This document shows positions 1,501 to 52,186 of a stretch of 64,000 bases of DNA, one piece after another (within the stretch, counting starts at the first letter, position 1; each line of letters begins with the position of its first letter). Source of the DNA: a virus; IMG/VR virus record IMGVR_UViG_3300027733_000033; one strand, written 5' to 3'. The notes below the pieces were generated by a model. That model did no database searches. It was not told the DNA's origin and was given only the letters and a program-made list of their open reading frames with translations. The position numbers and the translations under genes were made by a program.

Positions 1501-1578
1501 TTTTTAAGCGCTTAACCTCAATTCACGCCCGACTAGGCTATTATACGTGTTTGAAGATATAAAGTAAAGTTTTATTTT
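1501..1578 (-). repeat. Dispersed promoter-leader cassette (family A) copy 1
   Basis: AAAATAAAAC-TTTACT-N17-TATAATAGCCTAGTCGGGCGTGAATTGAGGTTAAGCGCTTAAAAA on minus strand. Confidence 0.9.
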
Positions 1579-1584
1579 AGGCAC

Positions 1585-1613
1585 AAAAAAGCCGACGATT
1601 AAGTCGGCTTTTT
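1585..1613. terminator. Intrinsic terminator after gp3 (potentially bidirectional)
   Basis: AAAAAAGCCGAC-GATTAA-GTCGGCTTTTT. Confidence 0.85.
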
Positions 1614-1614
1614 G

Positions 1615-2127
1615 CTATAGGGTTTCAAATTTGAAGAAAGTATAATTGAACGTCACATCACATGTTAGATAAGTAACATCTGACTGGTTAGTAACCATTG
1701 TCAACCCACCTAATTCTATCGGTCGTAAATCATAAAACGTTATATTTCGAATCACATTATTAGATGAAGATAAAATTTGTAAATTACCATCAGATACTTC
1801 ATTCAAATTACTCCCCGCTATAAAATCGCTAAACTGGATTCTTGCTTCGGGAAACCCTAACCCAACCATCCATTTATAAATAGCTAGATAATTGCTCATA
1901 TCTTCATCTACTATAAAGCTAACAGTCAAGTCTGAATACTGAAGATTGACCCCTGATGTATAAAAAGTAGATAGAGGAGTTTGAATTTCAGCTGGAGGTA
2001 AAGACACACTGGGTAACGTTACTTCTTGAGCAAAGTAAGTTAACTCAGGTATCTTCTGGATGCTGAATGTAAATCCAGACGCACTTAACGGATTCACATT
2101 ATGCTGATTTGCGACAAAGTTTGCCAT
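1615..2127 (-). CDS. gp3: Tail completion / tube terminator protein (T4 gp3-like)
   Basis: NPLSASGFTFSI..IPELTYFAQEVTLPSVSL, YSDLTVSFIVDEDMSNY..IYKWM, YLTCDVTFNY motifs. Confidence 0.85.
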   Translation of the reverse strand: MANFVANQHNVNPLSASGFTFSIQKIPELTYFAQEVTLPSVSLPPAEIQTPLSTFYTSGVNLQYSDLTVSFIVDEDMSNYLAIYKWMVGLGFPEARIQFSDFIAGSNLNEVSDGNLQILSSSNNVIRNITFYDLRPIELGGLTMVTNQSDVTYLTCDVTFNYTFFKFETL

Positions 2128-2129
2128 TT

Positions 2130-2351
2130 TTAACCTTTTAACGAAAGTGGAATTTTTAGGCTTATCTGTGCTACTTGGATAAAAAACATACCAACACCAA
2201 ATAGCGCAATATATGTTCCTAGAATTGGTTCAATACCGGTTACCATCAACAGGATACCAATAAAGGCTAACCCGTTGGTGTAAATTGTATAATACTCGCT
2301 TTTTTTCATAATTGAAAAATCCCATTGTAGGGTTGAAATAATGTTACTCAC
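2130..2351 (-). CDS. Small membrane protein
   Basis: Two hydrophobic segments; start may be the internal Met (MKKSEY). Confidence 0.55.
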   Translation of the reverse strand: MSNIISTLQWDFSIMKKSEYYTIYTNGLAFIGILLMVTGIEPILGTYIALFGVGMFFIQVAQISLKIPLSLKG

Positions 2352-2566
2352 GGTTGAGTAACCTCTTTAGTTTTGGGAGTAATTTTGCTCGTGACATTTT
2401 TACTTCCACTAGTATTTAATGGTAGATACCCGTTCAACAAATTTGACACTGTGTAAATAGCGTAAACTACAATTCCGCAACCCATTGCTGCTTTAAGCGT
2501 TGACGCAAGGTTATAGCCAATTTCTATCATAATATAATCCTCAAATTTACCAATTAGATTCATCAA
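2348..2566 (-). CDS. Small hypothetical membrane protein
   Basis: 72 aa ORF overlapping neighbours, one hydrophobic segment. Confidence 0.5.
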   Translation of the reverse strand: MMNLIGKFEDYIMIEIGYNLASTLKAAMGCGIVVYAIYTVSNLLNGYLPLNTSGSKNVTSKITPKTKEVTQP

Positions 2567-2750
2567 CGACCGGAATGGTCAATTCTGTCATAATACCGTT
2601 AACCTGATATTCAAATTTTACATGCAAAGTATATCCGATGCCGGTTGTATCTGTATGTAATAAATCAATATGCTGTACTTCAGGGAATTTCTGTAACAAA
2701 CTAGAAATATCGTTTACATCACTCACACTGATGTTTTTTATCTTATTCAT
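2547..2750 (-). CDS. Hypothetical protein
   Basis: Probable start MNKIKNIS at 2750 overlapping the upstream stop (track ORF extends to 2822). Confidence 0.55.
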   Translation of the reverse strand: MNKIKNISVSDVNDISSLLQKFPEVQHIDLLHTDTTGIGYTLHVKFEYQVNGIMTELTIPVVDESNW

Positions 2751-2931
2751 AATCACCGCGCAAGTAAGCTTTAATCCCGTCTTCAATCTCACGGGTTCGT
2801 TTTTTCTTAGGTAAATGAACATGACTTTTTCTTAACAAAGGACTGTTTAAAATCTTTTCCTTTGTTAAATCATCATAATTGTACCCACCTTTTATTTTAC
2901 CATCTGTATAGTTCATATTCTCCACGCTCAA
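2743..2931 (-). CDS. Hypothetical protein
   Basis: 62 aa ORF overlapping both neighbours in operon fashion. Confidence 0.5.
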   Translation of the reverse strand: MSVENMNYTDGKIKGGYNYDDLTKEKILNSPLLRKSHVHLPKKKRTREIEDGIKAYLRGDYE

Positions 2932-3172
2932 GCATACGCTGTCTTAATTGGTTTTCTCTAATTTGTTCTCTTAACATTTCTCTTCTTTCATACTCTCTAT
3001 ATCCATATTCCCTTTCACGTAAGATAACAACATCTCTTTCCACAGGTTGACTATATACTGACCCAAGAATAACACCGCCGATTATAGCAGGTGCTATCCA
3101 ATCATTTTCATGTGCAACCCCAACAGAAGGGATAGTTAAGGCTAACGCCGCAATCAATAATTTGTTTTTCAT
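2897..3172 (-). CDS. Exported/membrane-associated small protein
   Basis: Signal-peptide-like MKNKLLIAALALTIPSVGVA, hydrophobic WIAPAIIGGVILG, charged tail; GGAG RBS before ATG 3172. Confidence 0.7.
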   Translation of the reverse strand: MKNKLLIAALALTIPSVGVAHENDWIAPAIIGGVILGSVYSQPVERDVVILREREYGYREYERREMLREQIRENQLRQRMLERGEYELYRW

Positions 3173-3246
3173 ATTACACTCCATTAAGGTTTAACTTCAT
3201 TAAGATCTATTATACTATGATTTTTGTAAAAGTAAAGCTTTATTTT
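3173..3246 (-). promoter_or_regulatory. Sigma70-type early promoter with conserved leader (family B, copy 2)
   Basis: AAAATAAAGC-TTTACT-N16-TATAAT-AGATCTTAATGAAGTTAA...GGAGTGTAATATG. Confidence 0.75.
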
Positions 3247-3309
3247 AAATTATTTTTCATCAAATATAAAAAGCTAGACTTTTCTATTTTATCTATAATT
3301 TTTATCTAG

Positions 3310-3395
3310 GTTTTTCGTAAGTCATTGATTTATAAAGGTTTATTAAAATTAGGGATAAAAATAAAAGCTAATGAAATCAATGACTTACGAAAAAC
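3310..3395. repeat. Perfect 22 bp inverted repeat containing IHF-consensus sites
   Basis: GTTTTTCGTAAGTCATTGATTT (3310-3331) and AAATCAATGACTTACGAAAAAC (3374-3395); AATCAATGACTTA fits WATCAANNNNTTR. Confidence 0.85.
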
Positions 3396-3442
3396 GTAAA
3401 ATTAAATTGGTGACCCTGTAGGTAAGGTAGGGTTGAAAATAG

Positions 3443-3471
3443 TTTACTTTTATAACGAAATTATTTATAAT
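3443..3471 (+). promoter_or_regulatory. Sigma70-type promoter of uvsY
   Basis: TTTACT-N17-TATAAT, 30 nt upstream of the start. Confidence 0.7.
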
Positions 3472-3501
3472 ACATACTATAGAATACAACCGTGAGGGCA
3501 T

Positions 3502-3939
3502 ATGAATATAAGCGAACTACAAGAACAGTGGGAAATTGATTCGGAAATAGATGGAGTACAGTTAGACATAGAATCCATTAAATCTTCAAAACTTCATTCA
3601 AAATATATTGGGATATTGGTTGAGTCTAAACTGAAACTGATAAAGCTGAGACAGGAATACGCTAATTTAAGAACATTGAAGTTTAGGTATTACCGTGGGG
3701 AATTATCTAGAACAGAATTAGCAGAATTAAACTGGGTACAGTGCCAGTTAGGAAAGCCGCTAAAATCTGAGATGGACGAGATATTGAAGGGTGATACTGA
3801 CTTAACTACAATCGAAACCAAAATTGAATATATGGTATCTATGATATACATGCTTGAGTCTATATTAAATTCAATAAAAGATAGAACTTGGAGTATTAGA
3901 AACGCTATCGAATTTAAGAAGTTTCAAGCCGGCGTATAA
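3502..3939 (+). CDS. uvsY: Recombination mediator UvsY
   Basis: LQEQWEIDSEID, LHSKY, YYRGE, R.WSIRNAIEFKKFQAG C-terminus. Confidence 0.92.
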   Translation: MNISELQEQWEIDSEIDGVQLDIESIKSSKLHSKYIGILVESKLKLIKLRQEYANLRTLKFRYYRGELSRTELAELNWVQCQLGKPLKSEMDEILKGDTDLTTIETKIEYMVSMIYMLESILNSIKDRTWSIRNAIEFKKFQAGV

Positions 3940-3952
3940 AATTTTAACAAAA

Positions 3953-3978
3953 GAAAAGGGAGCCGAAGCTCCCTTTTC
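3953..3978. terminator. Bidirectional terminator between uvsY and gp23
   Basis: GAAAAGGGAGC-CGAA-GCTCCCTTTTC; cUUCGg loop on the minus strand. Confidence 0.9.
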
Positions 3979-4002
3979 ATTTACATTAATGTAAAATAAA
4001 TT

Positions 4003-5349
4003 CTACATAATGTTGCGTACACGAACAACACGATAGAAATAGTTTTTAGCTGCATATAAGCCAGTGTTACCAGAACCAGCATCCAATGTGCAGAATGGGT
4101 TAGCAGTGATACCATAACGTGTAGCAAAACCAATTTTTGGTTGGAACGTGTTAGGATCAGAAGCTCTCATTAATTGCAATGGAATATATGGGCAGTAGAA
4201 AATACCGGCGTCAAACGCGCTTGTACCTTTATAACCAACAACGAAGTATTGTTCGTTGCTCAAGTTACTTGAATAAGGATCGATGAATACTTTATAACGA
4301 CCGTTCAATACACCAGCATAAGTTGTAGATGTATCGTCAACGTTTAAGTTAGTGTTCAAAGCAGGAGCATAATCTAATGCGCCAGCCATCGCTAAAGCTG
4401 AAGCAACGTCAGCTGAAGTGATAATGAAGTTACCACGACCACGACGAGTCAATTGACCAATCGCATTAGCTTCACGTTCAATTTGGAACAATAAGCCTTT
4501 GAATTTTTCAACTGACCAACGACCATTTGAATCTGTATCTAAGTCGAAGATGCCAGCAGTAGTTGTACCGTTTTGTGCACCTGGAAGAGCAGAAAGATAA
4601 ACAGTACGGATAACTTCACGGTTAATCTCAGCAAGAATTTCTGTGCTTAAGATGTTAACCAATTCAGACTCAGCATCCAAGCCGTGTACTGATTGAAGAT
4701 CTTGTGCTAATTCATTTGTATATTCAGCTTTCAACGCACGTGATTTAGCAATAACGTGAGTTTTTTCGATAGAGAACGCCATTTCGTTGAAAGTAGCGCC
4801 GCCGCTAGAACCTAAAGCTTCTTTTGTAGCTGTAGACATAGCAGTGCCAGTATTATAACTAGCAGCACCAGGATAAGTACCAGTTTGGTCGCCGTTTACT
4901 GGAGTGCCAGTACCGTCAAACAACGCATTAGTAGCGCCGGCGAATTCTGTGTTAGCTTCGTTATAAAGCGCTTCTGTGCCGTTTTGTGAACCGTAACGTG
5001 ATTTCATCGCGAAGATCAAACCAGTAGGTTGAGTCATAGGTTGAACGCCGCAAATATCATAAGCAATAAGTTGTGGCATTGAACGACGAACCAAAGAAAT
5101 CAAGATAGGATCGTAACCAGAAACAGTACCAGTACCCGCGCCTGTACCACCTAAAGCGATACCAGTACCGCCGGCATTAGCAGGAGCTGCTTCATTAAGC
5201 ATACCGCTTGATTGTGTGCGCATATCATTTTCTTGGTTTTCCAATAATACCGCTGTTACTTCACGACGATATTTATCTTTGATTTCTGGCATTGCAGAAT
5301 GCTCAAGGATAGGATTCCATTTTTTTAATAATTCAGGACGTGTAGACAT
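4003..5349 (-). CDS. gp23: Major capsid protein
   Basis: KW.PIL, AVLLENQE, ICGVQPMTQPTGLIFAM, AKSRALKAEY, FQPKIGF.TRYG; L-N-E maturation site. Confidence 0.98.
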   Translation of the reverse strand: MSTRPELLKKWNPILEHSAMPEIKDKYRREVTAVLLENQENDMRTQSSGMLNEAAPANAGGTGIALGGTGAGTGTVSGYDPILISLVRRSMPQLIAYDICGVQPMTQPTGLIFAMKSRYGSQNGTEALYNEANTEFAGATNALFDGTGTPVNGDQTGTYPGAASYNTGTAMSTATKEALGSSGGATFNEMAFSIEKTHVIAKSRALKAEYTNELAQDLQSVHGLDAESELVNILSTEILAEINREVIRTVYLSALPGAQNGTTTAGIFDLDTDSNGRWSVEKFKGLLFQIEREANAIGQLTRRGRGNFIITSADVASALAMAGALDYAPALNTNLNVDDTSTTYAGVLNGRYKVFIDPYSSNLSNEQYFVVGYKGTSAFDAGIFYCPYIPLQLMRASDPNTFQPKIGFATRYGITANPFCTLDAGSGNTGLYAAKNYFYRVVRVRNIM

Positions 5350-5384
5350 TTTTAAAAATTTCCTTATAATAGATGAAGCAAAAA

Positions 5385-6206
5385 TTATTTAACGTGACGG
5401 TCAATTGCCGCAACATATTTATTGATAGATGGGTTTGAGTTGTAGCTTTCGTTTAGCTGTTCAACTGGAGCATCAGTAATAAAAGATACAGAAGGTTTTG
5501 TTGAACTCGGTTTGCTGAAATAATGCTCATTGATTGTATTCAATTTTGAACGGTAAGCCGCTTCACTAGAATAAGATAATTCTTCAGCAAGTTCACGGAA
5601 ACGTTCAGCATCAGTATCTACGAGTTTAGAAGTGAATTCTTCAACGATTAAAGAACGAGCAGATTCTTCTAATTTATATTTATATTGAATAGAAGTATCA
5701 ACAGCTTCTTTTAATTTAGATTGTAAGGTTTCAATTTGTTGTGCTTGTTCAGAAACAACATCAATTTTTGACTCAGGAATTTCGATATAAGAAGATTCGA
5801 ATAAACCTTTTAAGCCGCCAATGAATCCTTCAACAATTTCGGTTTTTAATCCAGTGTCGATAGCTAAAGCGTTTTGTTTAATGAACTGTTCAGAAACATA
5901 ACCCAAATAACCATCGATGCTTTCATCTAAAGACTCTGTATATTCATTAAATTTGTCTTCATATACATCAGATAATTCGTCAAATTTAACTTCATAAGAT
6001 TCTTCCAACTTATTGAATTTTGATTCATACATTTCTTCAATAACTTGTATTTCTGACTTAGCACGTTGAGCAACAGCATTCTCAAATGCCTCAACTAATT
6101 TACCTTTGGCTTCATCATCGAATCCTTCTAGTAAACCGTCAATAGAACCATCAGTTAATGACGCATCATTAACCATTGATTCGTATAATTTTTCTTTGAT
6201 TGACAT
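5385..6206 (-). CDS. gp22: Prohead core scaffold protein
   Basis: Acidic coiled coil, IDGYLGYV..., GLKTEIVEGFI.GLK.LF, position before gp23. Confidence 0.9.
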   Translation of the reverse strand: MSIKEKLYESMVNDASLTDGSIDGLLEGFDDEAKGKLVEAFENAVAQRAKSEIQVIEEMYESKFNKLEESYEVKFDELSDVYEDKFNEYTESLDESIDGYLGYVSEQFIKQNALAIDTGLKTEIVEGFIGGLKGLFESSYIEIPESKIDVVSEQAQQIETLQSKLKEAVDTSIQYKYKLEESARSLIVEEFTSKLVDTDAERFRELAEELSYSSEAAYRSKLNTINEHYFSKPSSTKPSVSFITDAPVEQLNESYNSNPSINKYVAAIDRHVK

Positions 6207-6243
6207 CAATTTCCCCTAATTAAATTCTTATTTTATTATTTAG

Positions 6244-6894
6244 CTATTTTACATTTCTAAGAAATTGTTCAAAAGATTCAACGCAAACCCGTTTAAGATC
6301 CTTTGAAGATGCAGATAAAATAGCCTGTTTAGTTTGTTCAGCATACATAGGTTGATAATGTCCGTTAATCAAAACCCATTCAGCATTTTCCATAATACCG
6401 TTAACCCAACAATCTATACCAGACGGCTCAGACACGATGTCAATAGTTCTTAAAAAGAAATCCGGTTGAACTTGGTTAACACCGTTAACCTGTTTCAGAC
6501 TACCAATCCCACGAGTTGAAACACCTAACTTAATCCCTTCTTTTAAAAGCGCCGCCGCTATAGCTCCTTGTGGCATCGATTCTAAAATCTTAGCTTTCCC
6601 ATAAACATCATTTTTACCCTCAAATCTTAAATCGGTAATTTTATGAGAAATTCTATCAGGGTTAACCGTCATAGTATCGGGATGACCCAACTCACCAGTT
6701 GAACGGTTTTCTTTAATTAAAGACTGGAAGTTATTAACTTCACGGTTCATAGTGTCCGCTTCGTAAACTCTTCCGTTTCTATTAGTTACGCCGGCTTGAG
6801 CAAAAACACCCTCAATATAATAACTTTTTTGCTTATCAGCACCTTCTAAAATGCTGTACGAAACACTTTCAGACAAATCAGTAAATAATTTCAT
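6244..6894 (-). CDS. gp21: Prohead maturation protease
   Basis: YIEGVFAQ...NRNGRVY, GELGHP, LGVSTRGIGSL, DIVSEPS; start reassigned to MKLFTD. Confidence 0.95.
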   Translation of the reverse strand: MKLFTDLSESVSYSILEGADKQKSYYIEGVFAQAGVTNRNGRVYEADTMNREVNNFQSLIKENRSTGELGHPDTMTVNPDRISHKITDLRFEGKNDVYGKAKILESMPQGAIAAALLKEGIKLGVSTRGIGSLKQVNGVNQVQPDFFLRTIDIVSEPSGIDCWVNGIMENAEWVLINGHYQPMYAEQTKQAILSASSKDLKRVCVESFEQFLRNVK

Positions 6895-6895
6895 G

Positions 6896-7324
6896 TTACG
6901 ATCCCACCACATCAGTGTTGTCATATTCACCAAATAATGGAGTTTCAATTTTAGATAGGTAGCCATCAACTTTTCTTAATCTAACCCAAAGTTGCGCTTC
7001 ACCACCTGAAATTGTTACAACCATATTTGATGCGTTTTCTGTATCATCTGGAGGAACCATAGCACCAGAAAAATCAAAAAAGCCTGACGCACCGCAGTTA
7101 AGGGTAAACACAGTCACTGAATTTCTTACCATTGTTATAACGCTAGTTGCGTCCCCAGTCCATTGGAGAGCAGCAACATTCACACGTCTAGGAACAGCAG
7201 CAAGTGTTTCTGTACTAACTTTAAGGTCGGTGTCTAAACTAATAGTAGCAGAACCGGCGTTACCGGCTATTTTCAAAAAGCATTCTTTTTCAGATGCTTT
7301 GATGATACTCTTAGTGACAGCCAT
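6896..7324 (-). CDS. Hypothetical head-cluster protein (occupies the gp68 position)
   Basis: 142 aa beta-rich ORF; only synteny supports a head role. Confidence 0.6.
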   Translation of the reverse strand: MAVTKSIIKASEKECFLKIAGNAGSATISLDTDLKVSTETLAAVPRRVNVAALQWTGDATSVITMVRNSVTVFTLNCGASGFFDFSGAMVPPDDTENASNMVVTISGGEAQLWVRLRKVDGYLSKIETPLFGEYDNTDVVGS

Positions 7325-7326
7325 GA

Positions 7327-7479
7327 TTATTCTTCCGTATCAATCACTAAATTTTTAGCAATATTTTGTTTAAGGTGTTCAAGATTATCTTGAATTTTGT
7401 CTGCCATAATAGCATTAAAGGTTTCTTGGATTAAATCCACATTACCTTGCTCAATGGCTTCTAGTAACTCATTGTTCAT
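7327..7479 (-). CDS. Small prohead core protein (gp67-like)
   Basis: Acidic 50 aa MNNELLEAIEQGN..FNAIMADKI..L, directly after portal. Confidence 0.65.
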   Translation of the reverse strand: MNNELLEAIEQGNVDLIQETFNAIMADKIQDNLEHLKQNIAKNLVIDTEE

Positions 7480-10276
7480 TTTGTGTATCCTGTGTTGTTT
7501 GTTGCGTATTATCTTCAGTAGATTGGTCAGATGTTTGCTGTTCAGCATTAGCCTGCAAAGTTGAATCTTCCTTGTTTTCTTTATCTATCTGTTTAATTTC
7601 TTCTTCAGTTTGATGTAATACGTTTTTGCGTATCCAATCAACAGAGTAATATTTACCTACATATGGGTCAATTAATTGTAGAGTTTGAATTCTTCCTTGA
7701 ATAATCTCATTATCTTTTAATTCAGCATAATGGTTATCTTCCGCGAACTCAAAATACAAAATTCGTTCAAGTTCTTCCCAGTCATCAGAACTGACAATAC
7801 CTTTACCGATCGTTTGGACTCTTAATAAATCAATAAACAGAGCAGTAAATTTATGTCTTAATCGACCAATAAATTTAGCAAACTTAACTTCGTCTCTTGA
7901 TATTTCAGAAGAACGCCCTATATTAAACCCAGATTCTGGAGTTAATCTTGAAGCAGGAACATTCAAAGATTTGTAAAGTTTATTTTGGAAAAACACAACA
8001 TCGTCAATTTGACCTAACGATTGTCCACCTGGAAGGGTAACAATTTCTGTGCCTTTAGAGTTCATCACAAAAATGCCTGAAGATAAAGCAAAATTGTGAT
8101 AATCGTGATGTATATGCTGTTCATCGATAGTTAACGTACCGACATCAATTGTATCCGTTCTAGTTACAACTTTTAATACCTTATGATTATTTAAGGATTT
8201 TGCTTTGTACGAACGGCGTTTTCCAACTTCATCAAAATTTCTAATGACAAAATCTGAAATTGAATCATACCCTTGTTCAAACAATGCTCTACTTAAAGAT
8301 TTTTTGCTTGATAAGTTAGGGTAAATAGAACTGGCAATTTCAACAATTTCTGAGTTTTTTATATTTGGATAATATGATTGTTTGATTGACTCAACCAACA
8401 CATTAAAATCATAACTTTTGCATAAAGAAGAAAATGCTTCGTTACGGTTAGCTAAATTCTTTTTCCATTTTTCATTAAATTCAGTTTCTGATAAAATTTC
8501 TTTATCTATTTTACGTTTTTCAGAAGCAACAGAACCAATCAAAGGCATTTCTTTGGTAAATCCTGGAGACCATTTTTTAAGATATTCTTCTTTTGATAAA
8601 ATAAGTTTATCTGCATTTCTTGATTCAGTTATATGTTCTCTTCCGAGTTTTAAACCTTTCCAAACATTTTCACATTCTGCATTAAACTTAGAAATCTCTT
8701 CTTTGCGAGCTAAACCATTTTCAGTTAAAAAGAAGGCTTTACCTGATTCAGACAGTTTAAGTTTCCATTCATCAACCTTTTCTGTCGTTCTCCAATGAGT
8801 AGAATATCCAGAATGCAATTTAAAATGGTCATCTTTATCCATAATAACCAAATTAGATGGATTATTATTGAATCTGTTAAAATCTATATGGTGGACAACT
8901 TCATTTTTGACTAAATTTCTTTCGGCAAACGAAGATACCATTTTATGAGTAGTAATCCATTTGTTGGATTCATTATCAAAAACATAATTGTAATCTTTAT
9001 TTTCATACAATACACGTTTTTCTACATCACAAGGCATCAATGATATGCCAGCAGATAAATCTTTAGCTTCTACCTTTAAGCCATTTCTTAAGATAAATTT
9101 ATGGTCTGGGGTACACGTTACGATTTGACCGTTGTCTAGATAAACATCAACAATTGTCGCATCATTTCGAGTAACACCTGCCCAAGAAATTAATCCAGGA
9201 ACAACTTTACCGGTAGGTGAAACAGAATAGACCCAGTTTTCTTTTCCTGCATTATGCTCAACTATGAGTTGACCTAATTCTACATCTCTGCCATCTAAAA
9301 GTTTTATTTTAGTCGATAAATCAAAACAGCCGTCTCTCCGTGGCATCCAATAATCTTCAATCATTGAAGGAGATTTGCGATCCTCGCTTATTTCTCCAGT
9401 CGTTGAGTTATAGACAAGTTTATTTCTAAACCTTGCCATAGTATCTTGAACATATTGGTCAGCCTTAATTTTAGGTAAAGAACCAACATCAATATAAAAC
9501 ACACGGCGTTCTGGTGCGCGGGTATAACGGTAGATAATCATTGCGTCTTCAGCCATTTTAAGCTGATTGACCAATTTGACACATTTATGCAGATAACTCT
9601 TAGCCAATCCAGTATTAGAATCAATTAAACCGGAATTAACATAAATTACAGAATCTGTTGAGAGTTTGATACCTTGGTTTGTAGTAGAAGTAAACCCTTT
9701 ATCGTTGTAAAGATAATAAGAATCACCATCAACGTGAACATCATTCCCTGATGCGTCTTTTACCTTTTTAACTTCTTTAATTTTACGAATTTTTCTTGGG
9801 TCGATATACCGGACTTCAACAATCCCATTTTTCAGATTATCTTTATCAAGTACAATATGGAAATACATTCTTCCATCAATGTACCATTGTCTAAAGAAAT
9901 CATACCCTTTTTTATTGAAGTCAAGAATGCTTAATATGCCATTAAATTCATCTCTAATTTTATTTTTAATCCCTTCAGAGTATTTAACCCCGTCCAGATT
10001 AATAGAAACTGGAGATTTAATGCCATCAAACGTAATTGCTTCATTCGTAATATCATCAATAGCAGATGAACAATCAGGATAATCAGCAGCAATTCTATAC
10101 TGTCTGATTAACTGATTTTCGTCTTTAACAACGCCGTCTAAGTCTAAGGCTAGACCATAAGCAGAATAAGCGCTTATGATCGAGCCGTCGTCATTAGATG
10201 GAGGAACAATCGATTCAATTTTTTTCTTAGATTTATCTTCTTTTTTACCGATAGTAAATCCGAATATTCCAGCCAT
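7469..10276 (-). CDS. gp20: Portal vertex protein containing an intein
   Basis: FRQWYIDGR, YIDPRKIRK, IYR..RAPERRVFYIDVG.LP, EDYW.PRR, LPGGQ.LG, ISRDEVKF. Confidence 0.97.
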   Translation of the reverse strand: MAGIFGFTIGKKEDKSKKKIESIVPPSNDDGSIISAYSAYGLALDLDGVVKDENQLIRQYRIAADYPDCSSAIDDITNEAITFDGIKSPVSINLDGVKYSEGIKNKIRDEFNGILSILDFNKKGYDFFRQWYIDGRMYFHIVLDKDNLKNGIVEVRYIDPRKIRKIKEVKKVKDASGNDVHVDGDSYYLYNDKGFTSTTNQGIKLSTDSVIYVNSGLIDSNTGLAKSYLHKCVKLVNQLKMAEDAMIIYRYTRAPERRVFYIDVGSLPKIKADQYVQDTMARFRNKLVYNSTTGEISEDRKSPSMIEDYWMPRRDGCFDLSTKIKLLDGRDVELGQLIVEHNAGKENWVYSVSPTGKVVPGLISWAGVTRNDATIVDVYLDNGQIVTCTPDHKFILRNGLKVEAKDLSAGISLMPCDVEKRVLYENKDYNYVFDNESNKWITTHKMVSSFAERNLVKNEVVHHIDFNRFNNNPSNLVIMDKDDHFKLHSGYSTHWRTTEKVDEWKLKLSESGKAFFLTENGLARKEEISKFNAECENVWKGLKLGREHITESRNADKLILSKEEYLKKWSPGFTKEMPLIGSVASEKRKIDKEILSETEFNEKWKKNLANRNEAFSSLCKSYDFNVLVESIKQSYYPNIKNSEIVEIASSIYPNLSSKKSLSRALFEQGYDSISDFVIRNFDEVGKRRSYKAKSLNNHKVLKVVTRTDTIDVGTLTIDEQHIHHDYHNFALSSGIFVMNSKGTEIVTLPGGQSLGQIDDVVFFQNKLYKSLNVPASRLTPESGFNIGRSSEISRDEVKFAKFIGRLRHKFTALFIDLLRVQTIGKGIVSSDDWEELERILYFEFAEDNHYAELKDNEIIQGRIQTLQLIDPYVGKYYSVDWIRKNVLHQTEEEIKQIDKENKEDSTLQANAEQQTSDQSTEDNTQQTTQDTQNEQ
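8060..9328 (-). mobile_element. Intein (423 aa) with HNH endonuclease in gp20
   Basis: Starts CFDLSTKIKLLDG, block B TCTPDHKF, VVHHIDFNRFNNNPSNL HNH motif, ends HNFALSSGIFVMN followed by Ser. Confidence 0.93.
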
Positions 10277-10303
10277 AATTTATATTATTCCAAAAATAAA
10301 GTT

Positions 10304-10849: not shown

Positions 10850-10852
10850 TTA

Positions 10853-13432: not shown

Positions 13433-13477
13433 ATGTACTCCTAAGAGAATTGGTTGTTAAATTATAGTTATAAAAAT

Positions 13478-13484
13478 ATTTAGT
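13478..13484 (-). promoter_or_regulatory. Putative T4-type late promoter (CTAAATA) for gp18
   Basis: The same heptamer lies shortly upstream of gp22, gp13, the 32239 fibre gene, the VrlC-like gene, gp25 and gp4. Confidence 0.7.
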
Positions 13485-13510
13485 GAAAAATGATTTTTAA
13501 TTTATGTTCA

Positions 13511-13587
13511 AAAATAAAACTTTACTTTTTAGACCAATGAGACTATAATAGCCTAGTCGGGCGTGAATTGAGGTTAAGCGGCTAAAA
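13511..13587 (+). repeat. Promoter-leader cassette (family A) copy 2
   Basis: AAAATAAAAC-TTTACT-N17-TATAATAGCCTAGTCGGGCGTGAATTGAGGTTAAGCG-GCTAAAA; abuts the gp15 stop, antisense. Confidence 0.9.
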
Positions 13588-13589
13588 TA

Positions 13590-32300: not shown

Positions 32301-32953
32301 TTAGTGTTGAAATAAAGAGACTGATGTTTCTGCTTTACATTTATCAAAATGCCATCTTTTCATTCCATTTTCACCTCCAGTTTACCGCAATGTGGACATG
32401 TGACTTGTTTTCTAGGTTCACCTTTATCTGAGCGTGGGTTTCTAGGTTTACTTGATTTTTTGTATGGACCACGTTTTTTGCCTGTCATATTAGCAGATAT
32501 TTTGTCTTTAGCTTCTTGTGATTTGGATTTACCTTTATTTGGAGCAACTCTGCCTTTAGCACAAGCTTTCATGTTAGCTTTAGCTTCTTCTGAACGAGGT
32601 CTACGCATTTTGGCTTTAGTTTCTTCTGATGGCTTTTCACCAGAGGCACCTCCATCTAACCCGTTTTCTGGAATTAGATTTGCCCATTCATCAGAATTAA
32701 CTATGTCGTTATCAACAGAAAACTTTAACGCAACCTCGACAATTGAAGCGTCATAGTACAACTCAGAAACCCAAAGAGTAACGATATGTTCTTTACCGTG
32801 TTTTTTGATGTGGTTACACCAGTATTTGCCTGAGCCGTTGTAGGTGTATGGGTCTCTAGTGGTCTTACCGAAATATTTCTTTTTGGTTATGGAATGCTGT
32901 TTGATGTAAAGATAGGTGGGTGTGATAGGAGTATAAATACTTGTGCTGGTCAT
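32301..32953 (-). CDS. GIY-YIG-like/NUMOD3 homing endonuclease with a C-terminal frameshift
   Basis: TYLYIKQH...KKYFGKT, Y.GSG.YW, WANLIPENG, SEETKAKM; start MTSTSIY after AAGGA; in-frame stop at 32360, while the shifted frame gives GGENGMKRWHFDKCK ending at 32301. Confidence 0.82.
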
Positions 32954-32984
32954 GGTAATTCCTTTTATCGATAGAATGATTAGT

Positions 32985-33021
32985 GCCACTGGGGACTGCA
33001 ATCCCGCGAGTGGCTTTTTTT
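32985..33021 (+). terminator. Terminator-like hairpin antisense to the homing endonuclease leader
   Basis: GCCACT-GGGGACTGCAATCCCGCG-AGTGGC-TTTTTTT. Confidence 0.7.
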
Positions 33022-33038
33022 GTACAAAATATTTAGTA

Positions 33039-33116
33039 AAAATAGAGCTTTACTTTATGTTGCTAAACACGTATAATAGCCTAGTCGGGCGTGAATTGAG
33101 GTTAAGCGCTTAAAAA
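33039..33116 (+). repeat. Promoter-leader cassette (family A) copy 3
   Basis: AAAATAGAGC-TTTACT-N17-TATAATAGCCTAGTCGGGCGTGAATTGAGGTTAAGCGCTTAAAAA. Confidence 0.9.
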
Positions 33117-33117
33117 T

Positions 33118-33150
33118 AAAGCCGGTAAACTGTTAAGTCATACCGGCTTA
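33118..33150. terminator. Hairpin/terminator after the 33157 gene
   Basis: AAGCCGGTA-loop-TACCGGCTT with A-rich flank (U-rich on minus). Confidence 0.7.
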
Positions 33151-33156: not shown

Positions 33157-33360
33157 CTATTTTGATAAGACTTGTCTAAGTAAATTCTTTAATTCTGATA
33201 GTTCTGATTTAAGGCTAACCACTTCAGAAGATAAAGAATGTGTTTTATTATTTTCTTCGCGCATTTGTTTAAATTTACGCATTTCATTAATGTCTACATT
33301 CAATATAGAATTTGACCGTTCATCACGTTTTAAACTAGGATTATCTTTTACACTTATCAT
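33157..33360 (-). CDS. Small coiled-coil protein
   Basis: VKDNPSLKRD..SNSILN, ELKNLL; typical companion downstream of VrlC-like genes. Confidence 0.7.
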   Translation of the reverse strand: MISVKDNPSLKRDERSNSILNVDINEMRKFKQMREENNKTHSLSSEVVSLKSELSELKNLLRQVLSK

Positions 33361-45736: not shown

Positions 45737-45743
45737 AAAAATC

Positions 45744-46193: not shown

Positions 46194-46205
46194 AAATTTT
46201 CCTTA

Positions 46206-46652: not shown

Positions 46653-46661
46653 TTTTATTCC

Positions 46662-49193
46662 TTAAAAGTTTGTTGTATATGTGCCTTCTGCATATGCTTG
46701 AGAATTATAATCTTCAAGAAAATATGAAAGCGCTATTTTAGTTAAAATTAAAGATCCAGTATCTGTAGTGCCAGAAGTAGAATCACTGAATCCTTTACTT
46801 AATAATTTAGAGAAAGTTTGAGATGGTGTAATTGCATCTGCTAATTGTTTAGAGAACGCAGTCGTTTTTGTTTCAGTATAAGTAATCGTTTCCGATAACC
46901 CTTTGTTAAACAATTTTGTGCTACTATCAGATTGCGTCACATAATCGGTTAACCCTTTGTTAAACAATTTTGTGCTACTATCAGAATTTGTTATGGAATC
47001 TGCTAACCCTTTGTTAAATAATTTCGTTCTACTATCAGAATTTGTTATGGAATCTGCTAACCCTTTGTTAAACAATTTTGTGCTACTATCAGATTGCGTC
47101 ACATAATCGGTTAACCCTTTGTTAAACAATTTTGTGCTACTATCAGAATTTGTTATGGAATCTGCTAACCCTTTGTTAAACAATTTTGTGCTAGAATCTG
47201 GCGCAGTTATAGAATCTGCTAATGCCTTACCAAATAATTTCGTTCTAGAATCTGGCGCAGTTATAGATTCTGCTAACCCTTTGTTAAACAATTTCGTTCT
47301 AGAATCTGGCGCAGTTATAGAATCTGCTAATGCCTTACCAAACAATTTTGTGCTAGAATCTGGTGCAGTTATAGATTCTGCTAATGCCTTACCAAATAAT
47401 TTCGTTCTACTATCAGAATTTGTTATGGAATCTGCTAATGCCTTACCAAATAATTTCGTTCTATTTTCAGATTGCGTCACATAATCTGCTAATGCCTTAC
47501 CAAATAATTTCGTTCTACTATCAGAATTTGTTATGGAATCTGCTAATGCCTTACCAAATAATTTCGTTCTAGAATCACTTTTACCAACACTATCAGCAAA
47601 TGGCTTTTCAATTAATGTAGAATGATCATCAGTAAAAAGTAAAATTTCTTTGAATAATTTTTTAAAGAAATAGCCTACCTGCTCAAGAGATATTGACATA
47701 TCAATATCATTATTTAAGGTGTATTCACCAAACATTAAATAGCCGGCTGGGTTCACCACATGTTTAACAATATCTTTATACAACTGAATATCTTCTGACA
47801 CTTTAATCGCATAAGAATAAATTTGATAATAATAATTATCCTGTAAAACAAATGCATCAGACGCAAACCCGTTGCTGGCTGTAAACGATCCAGGATATTT
47901 GCGGATAATTCCCATTTCAATTTCAATAATAGCGGTATTATCATCTGTTACATAATATCCAGGAGGAGCAGTGTAATCTGAATGAAATGTCCGTAAAACT
48001 TCACCGGAATAATCTATAGGTGCATACTCAACAAAATAATCTTGATATGTTATTACCCCGTCTTCAACGAACCCAGTTGTGTAATCATATAATTTTGATG
48101 GGTCAAACGTTTCAGATTTATTGAATCCAGATACTAAATTGAAATAAGAGTTTTGTTCATACCCAGACCCGAAAAAAATTAATTGTATAGATTTGATACC
48201 GCCGTCTGCATCTATGTCGACAATTTTACATTTTGCCCCGCTACCACCTGCGTCTAAATCAAATATCTGACCAAGTTTGAATTTAGCGCCTTTCTTTTCA
48301 ACCCTAAGTTTAGCAACAGATGGCTGTATAACACATAATACATCTTCAAACAAAATTTCATTATATAGCTCCAAATCATTATGATAAAATCCTTCCATAA
48401 AGATTTCATATTGACCGTTATTTACCGCTCTAACTCTGCTAACATAAACTTCAATTGTTTTATATGTTGATTGTATATTAACATATTTGCCAGTTAACGA
48501 ATATGCGTCTGCAACAGAAGTTTTAAATTGTATAGCAGAAATGGCATCAATATAAGCATGATCAACTAACGTTAAAATTGTGTCAGATTGAATAGAATAT
48601 ATTGTTCCAATAATAATATTTGTATCAGTTTTATGTAAAATAGAACCTTTTTGCAAATGTGTAAATTGTGTATTATAACCTGTTACAATCGTACTACTTT
48701 TAGATGTAGAAATAGAACCGGTTTGATTTTGATATGTTTTATCGTTTAACCAAGAAGTTGATATCCCTTTGTCATTAGAACTGACTGAAACAAGAACGGA
48801 TATTTCTTGTTTCCATCTGCCATCAGATGCTTTCAGAATAAAATCTTTTGGGTAAAATATATCAATCTCTTTACCGAACAGATGTCTAAATAAAATTCTC
48901 AATGATTCTTCTGAGCCTTTAGCTGAGTAAAAATCTTTAATATGTTTTAAAAGTAACCTTTCATCTATGCCATGTACAGATGGTATGTCTGAAACACCTA
49001 ATTCAGATTTGATATGTTCCACAAATACATCTAAATTGTCATCTAAAGATTTTAAGTTACCAAACGCCCTAAAATCTGTTTGTTCAATATACGAATAATA
49101 CAGTTCTAAAAATTTTATGAAATTGCCATATTTTGGTATGGTAAATTCAGGAAACTGTGACGATATTATCGAGGATAGTTTAGTTTTATCCAT
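46662..49193 (-). CDS. gp7: Baseplate wedge initiator with C-terminal tandem repeats
   Basis: FIKFLELYY, IKDFY.AKGSEES..ILFR.LF, LKASDGRW, LQDN.YYQ.YSY.IK, PAG..MFG. Confidence 0.82.
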   Translation of the reverse strand: MDKTKLSSIISSQFPEFTIPKYGNFIKFLELYYSYIEQTDFRAFGNLKSLDDNLDVFVEHIKSELGVSDIPSVHGIDERLLLKHIKDFYSAKGSEESLRILFRHLFGKEIDIFYPKDFILKASDGRWKQEISVLVSVSSNDKGISTSWLNDKTYQNQTGSISTSKSSTIVTGYNTQFTHLQKGSILHKTDTNIIIGTIYSIQSDTILTLVDHAYIDAISAIQFKTSVADAYSLTGKYVNIQSTYKTIEVYVSRVRAVNNGQYEIFMEGFYHNDLELYNEILFEDVLCVIQPSVAKLRVEKKGAKFKLGQIFDLDAGGSGAKCKIVDIDADGGIKSIQLIFFGSGYEQNSYFNLVSGFNKSETFDPSKLYDYTTGFVEDGVITYQDYFVEYAPIDYSGEVLRTFHSDYTAPPGYYVTDDNTAIIEIEMGIIRKYPGSFTASNGFASDAFVLQDNYYYQIYSYAIKVSEDIQLYKDIVKHVVNPAGYLMFGEYTLNNDIDMSISLEQVGYFFKKLFKEILLFTDDHSTLIEKPFADSVGKSDSRTKLFGKALADSITNSDSRTKLFGKALADYVTQSENRTKLFGKALADSITNSDSRTKLFGKALAESITAPDSSTKLFGKALADSITAPDSRTKLFNKGLAESITAPDSRTKLFGKALADSITAPDSSTKLFNKGLADSITNSDSSTKLFNKGLTDYVTQSDSSTKLFNKGLADSITNSDSRTKLFNKGLADSITNSDSSTKLFNKGLTDYVTQSDSSTKLFNKGLSETITYTETKTTAFSKQLADAITPSQTFSKLLSKGFSDSTSGTTDTGSLILTKIALSYFLEDYNSQAYAEGTYTTNF
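46875..47577 (-). repeat. 54 bp (18 aa) tandem array, 13 clear units
   Basis: DS[RS]TKLF[GKA/NKG]L[AT][DE][SITNS/YVTQS/SITAP]. Confidence 0.92.
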
Positions 49194-49195
49194 AA

Positions 49196-51010
49196 TTATC
49201 TACTCTTTGTAAATACATAACTAGAACCACCAAATGCAGTTGAATCAACAACAGCATCAATAATGATATTATTTGTGTCTAATTGTACTATGTTATGTTG
49301 TCTTGAAATAATATCGTTAGAAGCCGGCTTAATAAAAAATTCAAATTTTGTATTTGCCAGTCTTGAAATTGAAACTTCAGTCAAATTAATAGTGCCTTCT
49401 TCATAATTTACAGTTCCAAATGTTCCAACAGAATAAATTTTATTATACTCTGTATCTAATGTATATTTTATAAGGTTCCCGAGTCCATCGTCTTCCATGT
49501 AAAATATGGTTGACGCATCGCCTGTCACGTAGAACCCAGTCGTAGTAACCGCTTCCTCAGGCACACCAGCCGCATATATAGGATTATGCAAATCAATTGT
49601 ATATGGTGTTTTTGTATTGAAGTAAATGTTAACTGGTCTACGAATCAAAATATTAGTGATGTTTGAAAGTATAGCTGAATCAACACCATCAATCAATTTT
49701 AAAAATTTAGAATACCTGAAAACTGAATCAAACTTTTTAAGGCTTGTTTCATTATAATCTCTAACAACAACATCAATAGCAGATATTAAATCATTTTTGG
49801 TTCTAGTCGTAGCCGCCTTATCATAATGAGCAACAATATTAACCTGTAGATTGATATAATTAGGATCTACAAATTCAGGCGTTACTCCTATCACATTTCT
49901 GTTTTTAAGCAAATCTATTTTAATTAATTCTTTTTCAGCAGCAGATAATTTGCTAGAATATTTTGGTTTGATGCACATAAACACTTTACCGTAAACCGGT
50001 GGAATGTTATCCTCACCGCCCCACACATTAATTGTATCTATGTTTGTATAATTAGCCTTTATGACAGAAAGGTAATCATTAGCAGTCACCGCCCTATTAT
50101 GTGAATTTAATAGTTTTGGGGCATTAAATCTAATTTCAGATGCTGTTTCTGGTTCATCGCCACCAGAAGAAGGTAATACCGTAATAACAAAAGAAGAACC
50201 ACCTAATTCAACAATGCTTCTGGTTAACGCAAACTGGCGAATATCGTTAGCGTCTGCTCTATTGGTTATAAAGTATTCAATTGTTACAATATTTCCGTTT
50301 GTTAGCGCTTTACCTAATTTGTCGTTTCCGAATGACACTTCAAAATTATTGTCGTAAATTTCTTTAAGAAAAAACACGGTATCTGTTGATTTCACATTAA
50401 GAATATCGCTTGCTAATGTGTATGTAGTTACAGCGGTAGAAGAACTTGATTCTTTTACAATTACCTTTACTGTATCAACATCAACATTTTTGTTTGAGAT
50501 AATATATTTGGTTGTGTCAGAAACGGTGTACGTTTCATAATTTGGTATCCCTTCTTTAATCTCTATAGCATTTGCTCTATATATCCCATTAACAGGCACA
50601 ACAGGGATATCTTCTGTGTTATAGAAAAAGTAAGATTTTCCATTAGCCGTACATGAGAACGCAGAATATTTCGGCAAAATAGCTGAAGCCGGCGTTAACG
50701 TAGGGTTAGAGATAATCAAATCGACAGTAGCAGTTGCGCATTTTGCCGAGCGCGGTAAGTAACCTAGCATAGTTGCCAAAGAAACAACACTTTCCCTTTT
50801 AGATGCTGTATCTAAAAAAGATTCGTTAAGCGCCATATTGGTATACAGTGAATTGTAATGCGTATTGTATGCAAGCAAATCAACTAAGATAGATAAACCA
50901 GAACCCTCAAAATCATAATCAGATAAAGTTGATTGACCCTTTAGAAAGTTTTTTAGATTATTTTTTATGTTATCAAAGTCAAGTTCAGAAACATTTATTT
51001 GTTTATTCAT
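49196..51010 (-). CDS. gp6: Baseplate wedge subunit
   Basis: ELDFD.IK..L, DYDFEGS.L..L.D.LAYNTHY, FG....GK, RAVT..DY, WGGED..PP.YGKV. Confidence 0.95.
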   Translation of the reverse strand: MNKQINVSELDFDNIKNNLKNFLKGQSTLSDYDFEGSGLSILVDLLAYNTHYNSLYTNMALNESFLDTASKRESVVSLATMLGYLPRSAKCATATVDLIISNPTLTPASAILPKYSAFSCTANGKSYFFYNTEDIPVVPVNGIYRANAIEIKEGIPNYETYTVSDTTKYIISNKNVDVDTVKVIVKESSSSTAVTTYTLASDILNVKSTDTVFFLKEIYDNNFEVSFGNDKLGKALTNGNIVTIEYFITNRADANDIRQFALTRSIVELGGSSFVITVLPSSGGDEPETASEIRFNAPKLLNSHNRAVTANDYLSVIKANYTNIDTINVWGGEDNIPPVYGKVFMCIKPKYSSKLSAAEKELIKIDLLKNRNVIGVTPEFVDPNYINLQVNIVAHYDKAATTRTKNDLISAIDVVVRDYNETSLKKFDSVFRYSKFLKLIDGVDSAILSNITNILIRRPVNIYFNTKTPYTIDLHNPIYAAGVPEEAVTTTGFYVTGDASTIFYMEDDGLGNLIKYTLDTEYNKIYSVGTFGTVNYEEGTINLTEVSISRLANTKFEFFIKPASNDIISRQHNIVQLDTNNIIIDAVVDSTAFGGSSYVFTKSR

Positions 51011-52068
51011 TATCGTGTACGTTCCAGTGTTAGGTTAAGCGTGTATGGCAAATTAGATTCTGTTATGTAAAATTCAATACTAATATTTGCCAAATTTTTA
51101 TTAGATTCTGGACTAATAACAACATCAACATTTGTTAAGGTAGCTCTAGGCTCATATGCTGATACCACCTCTCTAATTGTACGTTTAATAATTTCAGCGT
51201 AAACTGGAGAAGAAGATTCAAATAAAAGGCTGGTGATTTGCGAGCCTAGATTTGAATTAAACGGGCGTTCATAATTCATTGTTCTGACAAGATGCTCAAT
51301 AGAAGTTTTAACCGCGTTTGCATCAATCTTAAAGGTAATATCACCAGGATGCGAAAATGTAAAATTAGCATCTGACACTGTAATATGCTTAGTTGAATCA
51401 GCAAGTTCCAATACGAATATCACATGTTCTATGTTTTCAAGAACGTTATCGGTCACAGTTCTTATTTGAACATATGCCGTGTAAACATCTTGAGCCTTTT
51501 CATAAAATGCTAAAGTCCCGCTAAGGTAATCCGAAATGTTAAATGTATTATCAGAATTTCTAGGATATTCACCAACAACGTCAAAAGAATCTAACCCTAA
51601 AATTCTATATTTGACAGGATAATTTTCTGTATCAGGGTAATTTGTATCAACATCAAAACGAATCAAATTTGACTCTATCTGATTGTTTGATAGGTTAGAC
51701 ACATTAAAAAAGTATTCTGTTCCATCCTTATTGAATGTAAATGTGCCGTTGGATACTGTTAACTCTGTCACCTGTAAGTATGTTCCATCATACAAATCCG
51801 TCATTATCGAAAGTAAAGCATTTCCATATAGCGTTAAAAATGAGTCAGATTCTATAGATTTAATTTTACCTATGAATGAATTAGATACATAAAGATTATC
51901 GTCTACAGAAAGGTAACGGGTGAATTGTGTATCAAACCCAACCACAATTGGCGAACCAGAGTTGTAATTAAGATATCCTTTACCTGAAATGCGTTCAAAT
52001 GCTGAAGGGTTAGGCATGAAGTTGAGGTCGATATCCTTGTAGCGTTTTATCGTTGACATATTCGGCAT
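51010..52068 (-). CDS. gp25: Baseplate wedge subunit gp25 with a large internal insertion
   Basis: N-terminal YKDIDLNF..NP and C-terminal AVKTSI..L..T..YERPF...GS...LLFE, YEPR, LERTR separated by ~220 extra aa. Confidence 0.85.
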   Translation of the reverse strand: MPNMSTIKRYKDIDLNFMPNPSAFERISGKGYLNYNSGSPIVVGFDTQFTRYLSVDDNLYVSNSFIGKIKSIESDSFLTLYGNALLSIMTDLYDGTYLQVTELTVSNGTFTFNKDGTEYFFNVSNLSNNQIESNLIRFDVDTNYPDTENYPVKYRILGLDSFDVVGEYPRNSDNTFNISDYLSGTLAFYEKAQDVYTAYVQIRTVTDNVLENIEHVIFVLELADSTKHITVSDANFTFSHPGDITFKIDANAVKTSIEHLVRTMNYERPFNSNLGSQITSLLFESSSPVYAEIIKRTIREVVSAYEPRATLTNVDVVISPESNKNLANISIEFYITESNLPYTLNLTLERTR

Positions 52069-52108
52069 TAAGTTAAAGTGAAGATATATTATTTAGCGCT
52101 TTAATTGT

Positions 52109-52186
52109 AAAATAAAACTTTACTTTTTACTCCTAGAAGCGTATAATAGCCTAGTCGGGCGTGAATTGAGGTTAAGCGCTTAAAAA
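52109..52186 (+). repeat. Promoter-leader cassette (family A) copy 4
   Basis: AAAATAAAAC-TTTACT-N17-TATAATAGCCTAGTCGGGCGTGAATTGAGGTTAAGCGCTTAAAAA. Confidence 0.9.

Follow-up and report, generated by a model that had tools for sequence, protein, structure and literature searches.

Four copies of an early promoter carrying a fixed, GC-rich block of 37 nucleotides (nt) directly downstream are dispersed through the late-gene region of a T4-like lake phage, represented by the IMG/VR virus record IMGVR_UViG_3300027733_000033; the whole stretch of 64,000 nt that was analysed is called the window below, and the 37-nt block is called the box. The reading that we favor, at a probability of roughly 0.45, is that these promoters form a distinct class in which the box is a control site acting at the level of DNA, recognised by RNA polymerase and, probably, also by a factor specific to the clade. 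Promoters of this class would provide convergent or antisense early transcription at the borders of late operons, and an additional early promoter elsewhere. Relatives of the phage are referred to by handles beginning with L or G where they need to be told apart.

The 37-mer TATAATAGCCTAGTCGGGCGTGAATTGAGGTTAAGCG occurs exactly four times in the window, at 1509-1545 on the minus strand and at 13544-13580, 33072-33108 and 52142-52178 on the plus strand, as compared to zero occurrences in 100 shuffles; allowing up to three mismatches reveals no additional copy in the window. Every 37-mer is preceded by an A-rich block, the motif CTTTACT, a spacer of 17 nt that differs from copy to copy, and TATAAT, with the A-tract of all copies located at -38 to -30. 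Copies 1, 3 and 4 are identical across 47 nt, from CGTATAAT through GCGCTTAAAAA and including the palindrome TTAAGCGCTTAA, and copy 2 diverges from the other three after AAGCG. No other dispersed or inverted repeat in the window is as long as the boxed copies. A first-pass annotation, made by a model from the letters of the sequence, had described four such copies with a common A-rich block, TTTACT and a variable 17-nt spacer, and with a longer identity in three of them ending in a palindrome; each of these descriptions is borne out.

The box region has two parts with different histories of conservation. Box 1 consists of TATAAT plus AGCCTAGTCGGGCGTGAA, is constant in every lineage, and takes in the presumably untranscribed discriminator, the six bases of which are invariant in boxed copies and variable in other early promoters. 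Box 2 is a segment of about 17 nt, from about +21 to +37, that comes in lineage types: type A (TTGAGGTTAAGCG), type B (TTGGGTTTAGGCG), type C (GTAAGGGTTAACGCC), type D (TTAAGGATAAGCGG), and the further variants E and F. Every type is rich in G and poor in C and retains a GAGG, AAGG or GGG tract, and the 12-nt palindrome is found in type A copies only. Copies on one contig generally have the same box 2. The comparison of the window with lineage B is instructive, because the adjacent DNA is 94-95% identical (97.5% further on) and box 2 just 65%. Both B-lineage copies carry the new version, and on these grounds box 2 has been replaced as a block and kept alike within a genome.

Across 25 distinct copies, conservation is 100% in the A-tract, in CTTTACTTT, in TATAAT and at positions 1-15 of the box, and the spacer varies freely, a count that is partly circular in that many of the copies were retrieved with the box as query. 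Loci retrieved by way of the sheath protein, rather than the box, show the identical pattern. Where the sheath is 69-77% identical, identity to the window has dropped to 57-62% in the flanks and spacer, and yet the -10 element plus box 1 is identical at 25 of 26 positions, with no difference in the -10 hexamer or the 18 nt after it. Because of this disparity, the conservation of box 1 probably reflects selection and not recency, and the earlier judgment that the element is more conserved than a promoter needs to be has held up. T4-like phages with a sheath identity of 54% or less have only the late promoter TATAAATA at the sheath locus.

The promoter part of the element is widespread in the clade. 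The arrangement CTTTACTTT-N-TATAAT is the general early promoter, with dozens found by scanning the window and twelve related loci, and the box is present on a minority of these, most having other start regions. One common kind, designated class II, has a 16-nt spacer and a variable leader of the form AGAtnTTAATGAAGTTAAAC...GGAG..ATG; the class II promoter close to copy 1 precedes, and drives, a TreK-like gene (1153-1437). The first-pass annotation had raised the prospect that the element is simply the standard early promoter of sense early genes. This is correct for the promoter itself, but the box marks a distinct minority, and most copies in the window have no sense open reading frame directly behind them.

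The box has never been seen without its TATAAT among the loci retrieved, and it is confined to one clade. Searches of IMG/VR with shorter box patterns returned the same loci and only two chance matches, both lacking the promoter, and a scan of metagenomes added one further locus. Other than a half-copy in L102 (see below), the box and its complement have only short exact matches at other places, 10-12-mers at chance level. Three contigs of 37-64 kb carry two copies each, versus four in the window, which amounts to about one copy per 15-30 kb; the copy number for a whole genome is an estimate extrapolated from these contigs and the window. Mimicry of a host sequence was considered and rejected, as a 20-mer from the box was present in only two contigs among 185,579 prokaryote genomes, one of them a mis-binned phage and the other a chance match in an unrelated context. 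Inspection by eye gave no convincing match to a MotA box, a sigma-dependent pause element, ops, or sites for LexA, CtrA or DnaA.

The placement of the copies is best described with reference to the late promoters. The motif CTAAATA occurs 16 times on the minus strand and 4 times on the plus strand, and ten of the 16 precede a gene start on their own strand by 23-77 nt; this strand bias and this position argue that CTAAATA is the late promoter of the clade. All four boxed copies lie between distinct gene modules, in agreement with the first-pass annotation. Copies 2, 3 and 4 are each back-to-back with a CTAAATA site (at 13483, 33036 and 52096) and are directed convergently into the 3' end of the preceding late operon. 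Copy 1 separates a tail-tube-like gene from an early operon and is followed, about 94 bp further downstream, by an ordinary early promoter; a second promoter likewise follows a boxed copy in L009, L011, L093/96/103, L094, L098 and L102.

Copy 2 lies between the genes for a gp15-like sheath stabiliser and the gp18 sheath, and its box ends 9 nt from the convergent gp15-like stop codon. This is the location of genes 16 and 17 in T4; here they are missing, with gp15 and gp18 adjacent and about 157 nt apart (13433-13589), and these terminase genes are located elsewhere. No plus-strand intrinsic terminator follows copy 2 for many kilobases. Copy 3, between a homing endonuclease/fibre-like gene and the giant structural genes, faces a hairpin and a convergent structural gene of 619 codons (33357-35216); the hairpin is predicted to terminate that gene on the minus strand and to be a weak terminator on the plus strand. 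Copy 4 lies between a baseplate wedge gene and a plus-strand open reading frame of 124 amino acids, 53 nt downstream, which is an ORFan confined to the clade with only chance-level matches in the atlas. Boxed copies of L001 and L102 point toward a gene for a NUMOD3 homing endonuclease, at its 3' end. Copies 1 and 4, along with several copies in relatives, are sense to early genes.

Table 1. Boxed promoters, neighbouring signals and virion genes of the window
Feature	Position	Strand	Remarks
Boxed promoter copy 1	1501..1578	-	A-tract, CTTTACT, 17-nt spacer, TATAAT, 37-nt box, CTTAAAAA
Boxed promoter copy 2	13511..13587	+	back-to-back with sheath late promoter
Boxed promoter copy 3	33039..33116	+	back-to-back with homing endonuclease late promoter
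Boxed promoter copy 4	52109..52186	+	back-to-back with baseplate wedge late promoter
Class II early promoter	1446..1474	-	16-nt spacer, leader AGATATTAATGAAGTTAAC..GGAG..ATG; tandem behind copy 1
Intrinsic terminator ending the tail-tube-like gene	1585..1613	-	GCCGAC stem and T-run, read from sequence; just upstream of copy 1
CTAAATA late promoter (sheath)	13477..13483	-	51 nt upstream of sheath start; divergent from copy 2
CTAAATA late promoter (homing endonuclease gene)	33030..33036	-	divergent from copy 3
CTAAATA late promoter (wedge)	52090..52096	-	28 nt upstream of wedge gene start (52068); divergent from copy 4
Hairpin after copy 3	33120..33148		minus-strand U-run derived from the A-tail of the box
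Strain-specific insertion	32313..33027	-	NUMOD3 homing endonuclease gene (32360-32959) and long hairpin leader, own CTAAATA promoter; abuts copy 3, absent from G002
Major head protein	4003-5349	-	
gp22, gp21, portal with insertion	7469-10276	-	
Sheath gene (gp18)	10853-13432	-	
gp15-like sheath stabiliser	13590-14303	-	
Tail tube gene		-	among the minus-strand virion genes
Neck protein, wedge proteins, hub proteins		-	among the minus-strand virion genes

A mechanism can be proposed that accommodates both the anatomy and the placement. The boxed promoters would be of the host sigma70 class, with an UP-like A-tract, CTTTACTTT, a free spacer of 17 nt, TATAAT and the fixed box. Transcription most likely starts 6-7 nt after TATAAT, so that the RNAs would begin (A)GUCGGGCGUGAA and the box would extend from the untranscribed discriminator (about -6) to about +30. 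The conserved block would then straddle the start site; it has no RNA fold, and one half of it is universal and the other private to a lineage. For these reasons a DNA-level control site, either an operator or a site of interaction with RNA polymerase, seems the most suitable description. Acting through the box, a clade-specific factor would turn all promoters of the class on or off together. In the late region, the class would fire convergently into the 3' ends of late operons or into homing endonuclease genes, generating early antisense RNA or transcriptional interference, and in early regions the boxed element would serve as an extra promoter upstream of the ordinary one. As near-identical repeats of 70-80 bp, the elements would double as crossover points for modular exchange.

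A more specific version of this proposal is doubtful as it stands, namely that the box is a two-part site (box 1 clade-wide, box 2 lineage-private) for a phage-encoded repressor, activator or polymerase-loading factor such as an antiterminator, and that it controls gene-less early promoters which silence or insulate late operons and homing endonuclease genes. The combination of a universal and a lineage-private half does predict a reader factor. If a two-part reader exists, the block-wise change of box 2 between near-identical phages would be a switch of specificity, analogous to immunity or nut/N specificity in the lambdoid phages. We know of no such reader system in T4-like phages that lack MotA and AsiA.

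Several considerations count against a DNA-level control site. The proposal rests on sequence, and the available lake metatranscriptomes are assembled contigs that break inside the box, leaving starts and strands unreadable; low RNA coverage near copy 1 is given no weight here. An operator would usually have dyad symmetry, which the box lacks, and no protein emerged as a candidate reader. The existence of boxed copies that are sense to early genes implies that antisense action is not the entire function. The uniformity of box 2 within a genome has an exception in L102, where two tandem copies differ (types E and F), and gene conversion alone could make box 2 alike on one contig, the spacer swaps described below showing that conversion occurs. 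Finally, the G-richness of box 2, its scarcity of C and its preserved GAGG/AAGG tract would equally fit a role at the RNA level.

The last point leads to an explanation that we consider unlikely but worth setting out, in which the RNA is itself the product and the box encodes a common, unstructured, G-rich and C-poor leader with a GAGG/AAGG tract resembling a Shine-Dalgarno sequence. Such a leader might act as a 5' stabiliser or ribosome decoy, as an RNA-binding or antitermination handle that allows untranslated antisense RNAs to escape Rho, or as a short multi-copy regulatory RNA. The variety of what lies downstream (a promoter, a convergent gene, a hairpin, an open reading frame) does suggest that function resides in the shared 5' part, every box 2 variant has a purine tract that includes GG and hardly any C, and copy 3 together with its hairpin could yield an RNA of about 65 nt. 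The tail GCGCTTAAAAA/GCGCTTTAA also has a loose likeness to the boxA sequence of lambda nut sites and rrn operons. However, the invariant block starts in the discriminator, which is presumably not transcribed, and the copy-3 hairpin, which has no counterpart at the other copies, is positioned to terminate the convergent gene.

Searches for an RNA gene point the same way. The four transcripts fold no better than shuffled sequence, and RNAalifold applied to 16 variants gave as its sole consensus an invariant 4-bp stem, GCCU/GGGC, with 0 covarying pairs; half of this stem is in the discriminator, upstream of the expected sigma70 start, and it is broken in the L102 half-copy by a change of C4 to A. 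No Rfam family matches the window at gathering thresholds, only chance-level matches appear around copies 3 and 4 at E<10, and no tRNA or tmRNA was found in the window. No conserved terminator, 3' end or reading frame is found at the box. The Shine-Dalgarno-like tract is not followed by a start codon, none occurring within 50 nt of the box in any window copy, and complementarity of the leader does not rise above chance in the window, in relatives or in a neighbouring structured RNA, with which it pairs no better than shuffled sequence does. With a hairpin at copy 3 only, and neither covariation, an Rfam match nor a target above chance, the element does not qualify as a small-RNA gene, and the suggestion in the first-pass annotation of a multi-copy small RNA finds no support. 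The box would also differ from a lambda-type nut site (boxA followed by a boxB hairpin), as no conserved hairpin follows it. Two smaller candidates were rejected: a tRNA D-arm, to which the box is slightly similar and which it is unable to form, and a mini reading frame within the box, GTG-AAT-TGA, which has no usable spacing to a ribosome-binding site and is lost in one variant.

The neighbouring structured RNA mentioned above is a separate observation. Beside a tRNA cluster, an early promoter is followed by about 290 nt of non-coding DNA (L098:8546-8840 on the plus strand; L003 at about 2450-2756 on the minus strand), corresponding to a position about 6 kb to the left of the window. It folds well beyond shuffled sequence (z -3.7), has no Rfam match, and includes AGCCTAGTCG, which equals nt 1-10 of the box.

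The boxed promoters could alternatively be R-loop replication origins of the T4 oriF/oriG type, at which the G-rich 5' end of the transcript would remain hybridised to the template and prime the leading strand, with several such origins per genome. The T4 origins oriF(uvsY) and oriG(34) consist of MotA-dependent middle promoters and an A+T-rich unwinding element that has no sequence specificity (PMC3016281). The likeness lies in the dispersal of several copies per genome and in the possibility that the transcript of the promoter, rather than a protein, is the functional output. The boxed promoters are gene-independent and are found in both orientations at about one per 15-30 kb, a number similar to that of the T4 origins (PMC3016281); their transcribed non-template strand is strongly G-skewed, with 11 G versus 3 C in the first 25 nt, and A/T-rich DNA follows the box at copies 1 and 4. 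Nonetheless, this explanation seems improbable. The promoter here is of early type, and its conserved part is GC-rich and sequence-specific, in contrast to the A+T-rich unwinding element of no particular sequence in T4 (PMC3016281). The first 30 nt are GC-rich, copy 2 runs into coding DNA, and copy 3 runs into a GC hairpin. In addition, uvsY (3502-3939), the site of oriF in T4, has an ordinary promoter without a box. As a side observation, this UvsY homologue (3443-3939, plus strand; gene 3502-3939) is located beside the head genes, unlike its position in T4.

The elements have clearly been involved in exchange. In all relatives whose sequence spans them, loci 1-4 carry the element, with no empty site seen, so the first-pass idea of a mobile unit with polymorphic occupancy is not upheld. 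Locus 1 of L011 and L098 carries the spacer of locus 2, and L011 additionally retains half of the copy-3 hairpin. Homologues of the endonuclease cassette at copy 3, 75-79% identical to it, are found at other loci of L001, L004, L010 and L102; the one in L001 is inserted right after the box and is not present in L009. In L102, a truncated type-A copy lies beside the endonuclease cassette, the genome's own copies being of types E and F, and this half-copy was probably imported together with the endonuclease. In the 4.9-kb contig L099 (IMGVR_UViG_3300044984_001826), a type-B boxed promoter has the upstream flank of locus 1 on one side and the downstream flank of locus 2 on the other, the latter being gp15-gp13 DNA that matches the window at 97.5% identity. 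This arrangement arose either by inversion between copies in opposite orientation or by chimeric assembly across an identical inverted repeat of 72 bp. A second joint, 1436 to 13511 on opposite strands in lake runs, was rejected as an inversion, since its short side is 55 nt and it is explained by the locus-1 variant with the locus-2 spacer. Together, the exchange of spacers, flanks and nuclease cassettes at conserved positions suggests that the elements are recombination seams rather than mobile units. As to the first-pass alternative of a protein-binding or recombination site, exchange at the elements is seen, and protein binding would remain the best reading of the box.

Whether the box is primarily a recombination or homing site, targeted by homing endonucleases or by a serine recombinase encoded 0.7 kb from copy 1, is a different matter, and we think there is little chance of it. 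Homologous NUMOD3 cassettes do lie directly beside boxed promoters at three separate loci, one cassette being accompanied by a foreign-type half-copy, and the L099 flanks are joined as an inversion would join them, but the same contig is equally explicable as a chimera. The boxes are identical with or without an adjacent endonuclease, and so do not behave as a disrupted or immune target; nucleases that exploit a conserved sequence leave the conservation itself unexplained. Copy 1 has the opposite orientation to copies 2-4 and stands at the head of the operon whose last gene encodes the serine recombinase (Resolvase domain, 222 amino acids; 121-789, minus strand). This gene is found in this strain only, with L003, L098, L104 and two lake runs joining position 134 directly to 797; relatives without it keep their boxes, which therefore do not depend on the recombinase. 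Nor does the box, being asymmetric, resemble the dyad-symmetric hix or gix sites of invertases.

Conversion and exchange between copies are real (the locus-2 spacer at locus 1 of L011 and L098), but it is very improbable that the boxed promoters arose by recent duplication of a single promoter region and have stayed alike through gene conversion, with no special function, given that box 1 is unchanged where the flanks are near saturation (57-62% identity), that a spacer only 7-23 nt away differs within the genome while the blocks on either side are 100% conserved, and that positions are conserved across relatives.

The window represents the late-gene third of a genome of about 185 kb, a size based on the CheckV rating of a 63.6-kb relative as 34% complete, and its large minus-strand genes are all T4-type virion genes. 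The head protein is about 62% identical to those of T4-like cyanophages, Pelagibacter myophages and Methylophilales myophages. Cultured phages show zero nucleotide matches to the element or adjoining DNA, and the known relatives are IMG/VR contigs and lake-water runs (18 studies).

Some other features of the window deserve mention. A giant protein of 2922 amino acids (35293-44061) and the adjoining one of 619 amino acids (33357-35216), both on the minus strand, have matches to PHROG families 358 and 877, neither of which has a known function; the two may be giant virion or fibre proteins. At least twelve tandem repeats of 54 nt (18 amino acids) occupy 46726-47619 within a wedge-like gene of 843 codons (46662-49193). 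The portal gene (gp20; 7469-10276) is interrupted by an in-frame insertion of about 1270 nt (8059-9342) that has a weak match to intein splicing domains, below the Pfam cut-off, and a weak HNH match. DNA and RNA contigs from other lake samples join 8059 directly to about 9330-9342, arguing that the insertion is a strain-polymorphic, intein-like element and not a spliced intron.

No published description of the boxed promoter class was found, and several known systems provide points of comparison. Antisense transcription of the kind proposed has precedents, in that early antisense RNAs over structural genes are documented in the virulent phage PAK_P3 (PMC4933390), and the CfrI RNA of cyanophage S-PM2 is antisense to a homing endonuclease gene (PMC2984593). 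The boxed class appears to have in common with these the direction of host-type promoters in the structural region against late or homing endonuclease genes, and an expected early activity. Those RNAs were found by RNA-seq and have no common promoter-proximal box, whereas the boxed class is known from sequence and some of its copies are sense to early genes.

A second comparison is with phage T5. Work from the Bujard laboratory in the 1980s reportedly showed that strong T5 early promoters such as N25 have a conserved, transcribed "downstream" region that influences late steps of initiation. Conservation from +1 to about +20 in a class of very strong early promoters would be common to T5 and the phage described here, and N25 and the boxed promoters both begin with TATAAT AG and carry a further motif, AATTTGAGAGAGG in N25 and AATTGAGG here. 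The T5 regions are A/T- and purine-rich and loosely conserved, whereas here 18-20 nt are invariant and GC-rich and the second half is private to a lineage.

The functional interest of the class lies in the timing of gene expression. Outside T4 and its nearest kin, the timing of early, middle and late genes is poorly understood in T4-like phages that lack MotA and AsiA, and a class of promoters defined by a box at the start site would provide a concrete and testable handle. It opens the ideas of early antisense silencing, of insulation of late operons and of control of homing endonucleases, and the 70-80 bp regulatory repeats illustrate how seams for gene exchange may be distributed in abundant lake phages.

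The closest known elements are the cassettes of early promoter and stem-loop (PeSLs) described in the T4-type phages RB49/phi1, T4/PST and KVP40/nt-1 (PMC2839356, PMC4122927), those of T4/PST using TTTACW-N17-TAYWAT, a promoter of the type found here. Like PeSLs, the boxed copies are composite and repeated, each combining an AT-rich tract and a strong early promoter of sigma70 type. PeSLs often have a terminator stem-loop directly before the promoter; here one lies upstream of copy 1 (1585-1613) and copy 3 (32985-33021), and copies 2 and 4 have none. The indels, exchanged gene cassettes and degraded half-elements of PeSLs also have counterparts here, in the endonuclease cassettes (copy 3, L001/L009), the L102 half-element and the L011/L098 spacer swaps, and exchange at the boxed elements matches the role proposed for PeSLs (PMC2839356, PMC4122927). 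PeSLs end in the Shine-Dalgarno sequence and start codon of the gene that they drive, and are found mostly in hyperplastic early regions and more rarely in structural modules (PMC2839356, PMC4122927). The boxed class instead has its fixed GC-rich block of 37 nt and no such ending, with two copies facing convergent genes; three of the four copies in the window are situated among the virion genes and face late genes, and positions are conserved rather than polymorphic. The class II promoters of the clade appear to fit the published PeSL definition better than the boxed class does. If the box merely tunes promoter escape, the class would be a modest extension of PeSLs. What appears to be new relative to them is a fixed box in two parts that lacks a start codon, the location in structural modules against late genes, and the conservation of position.

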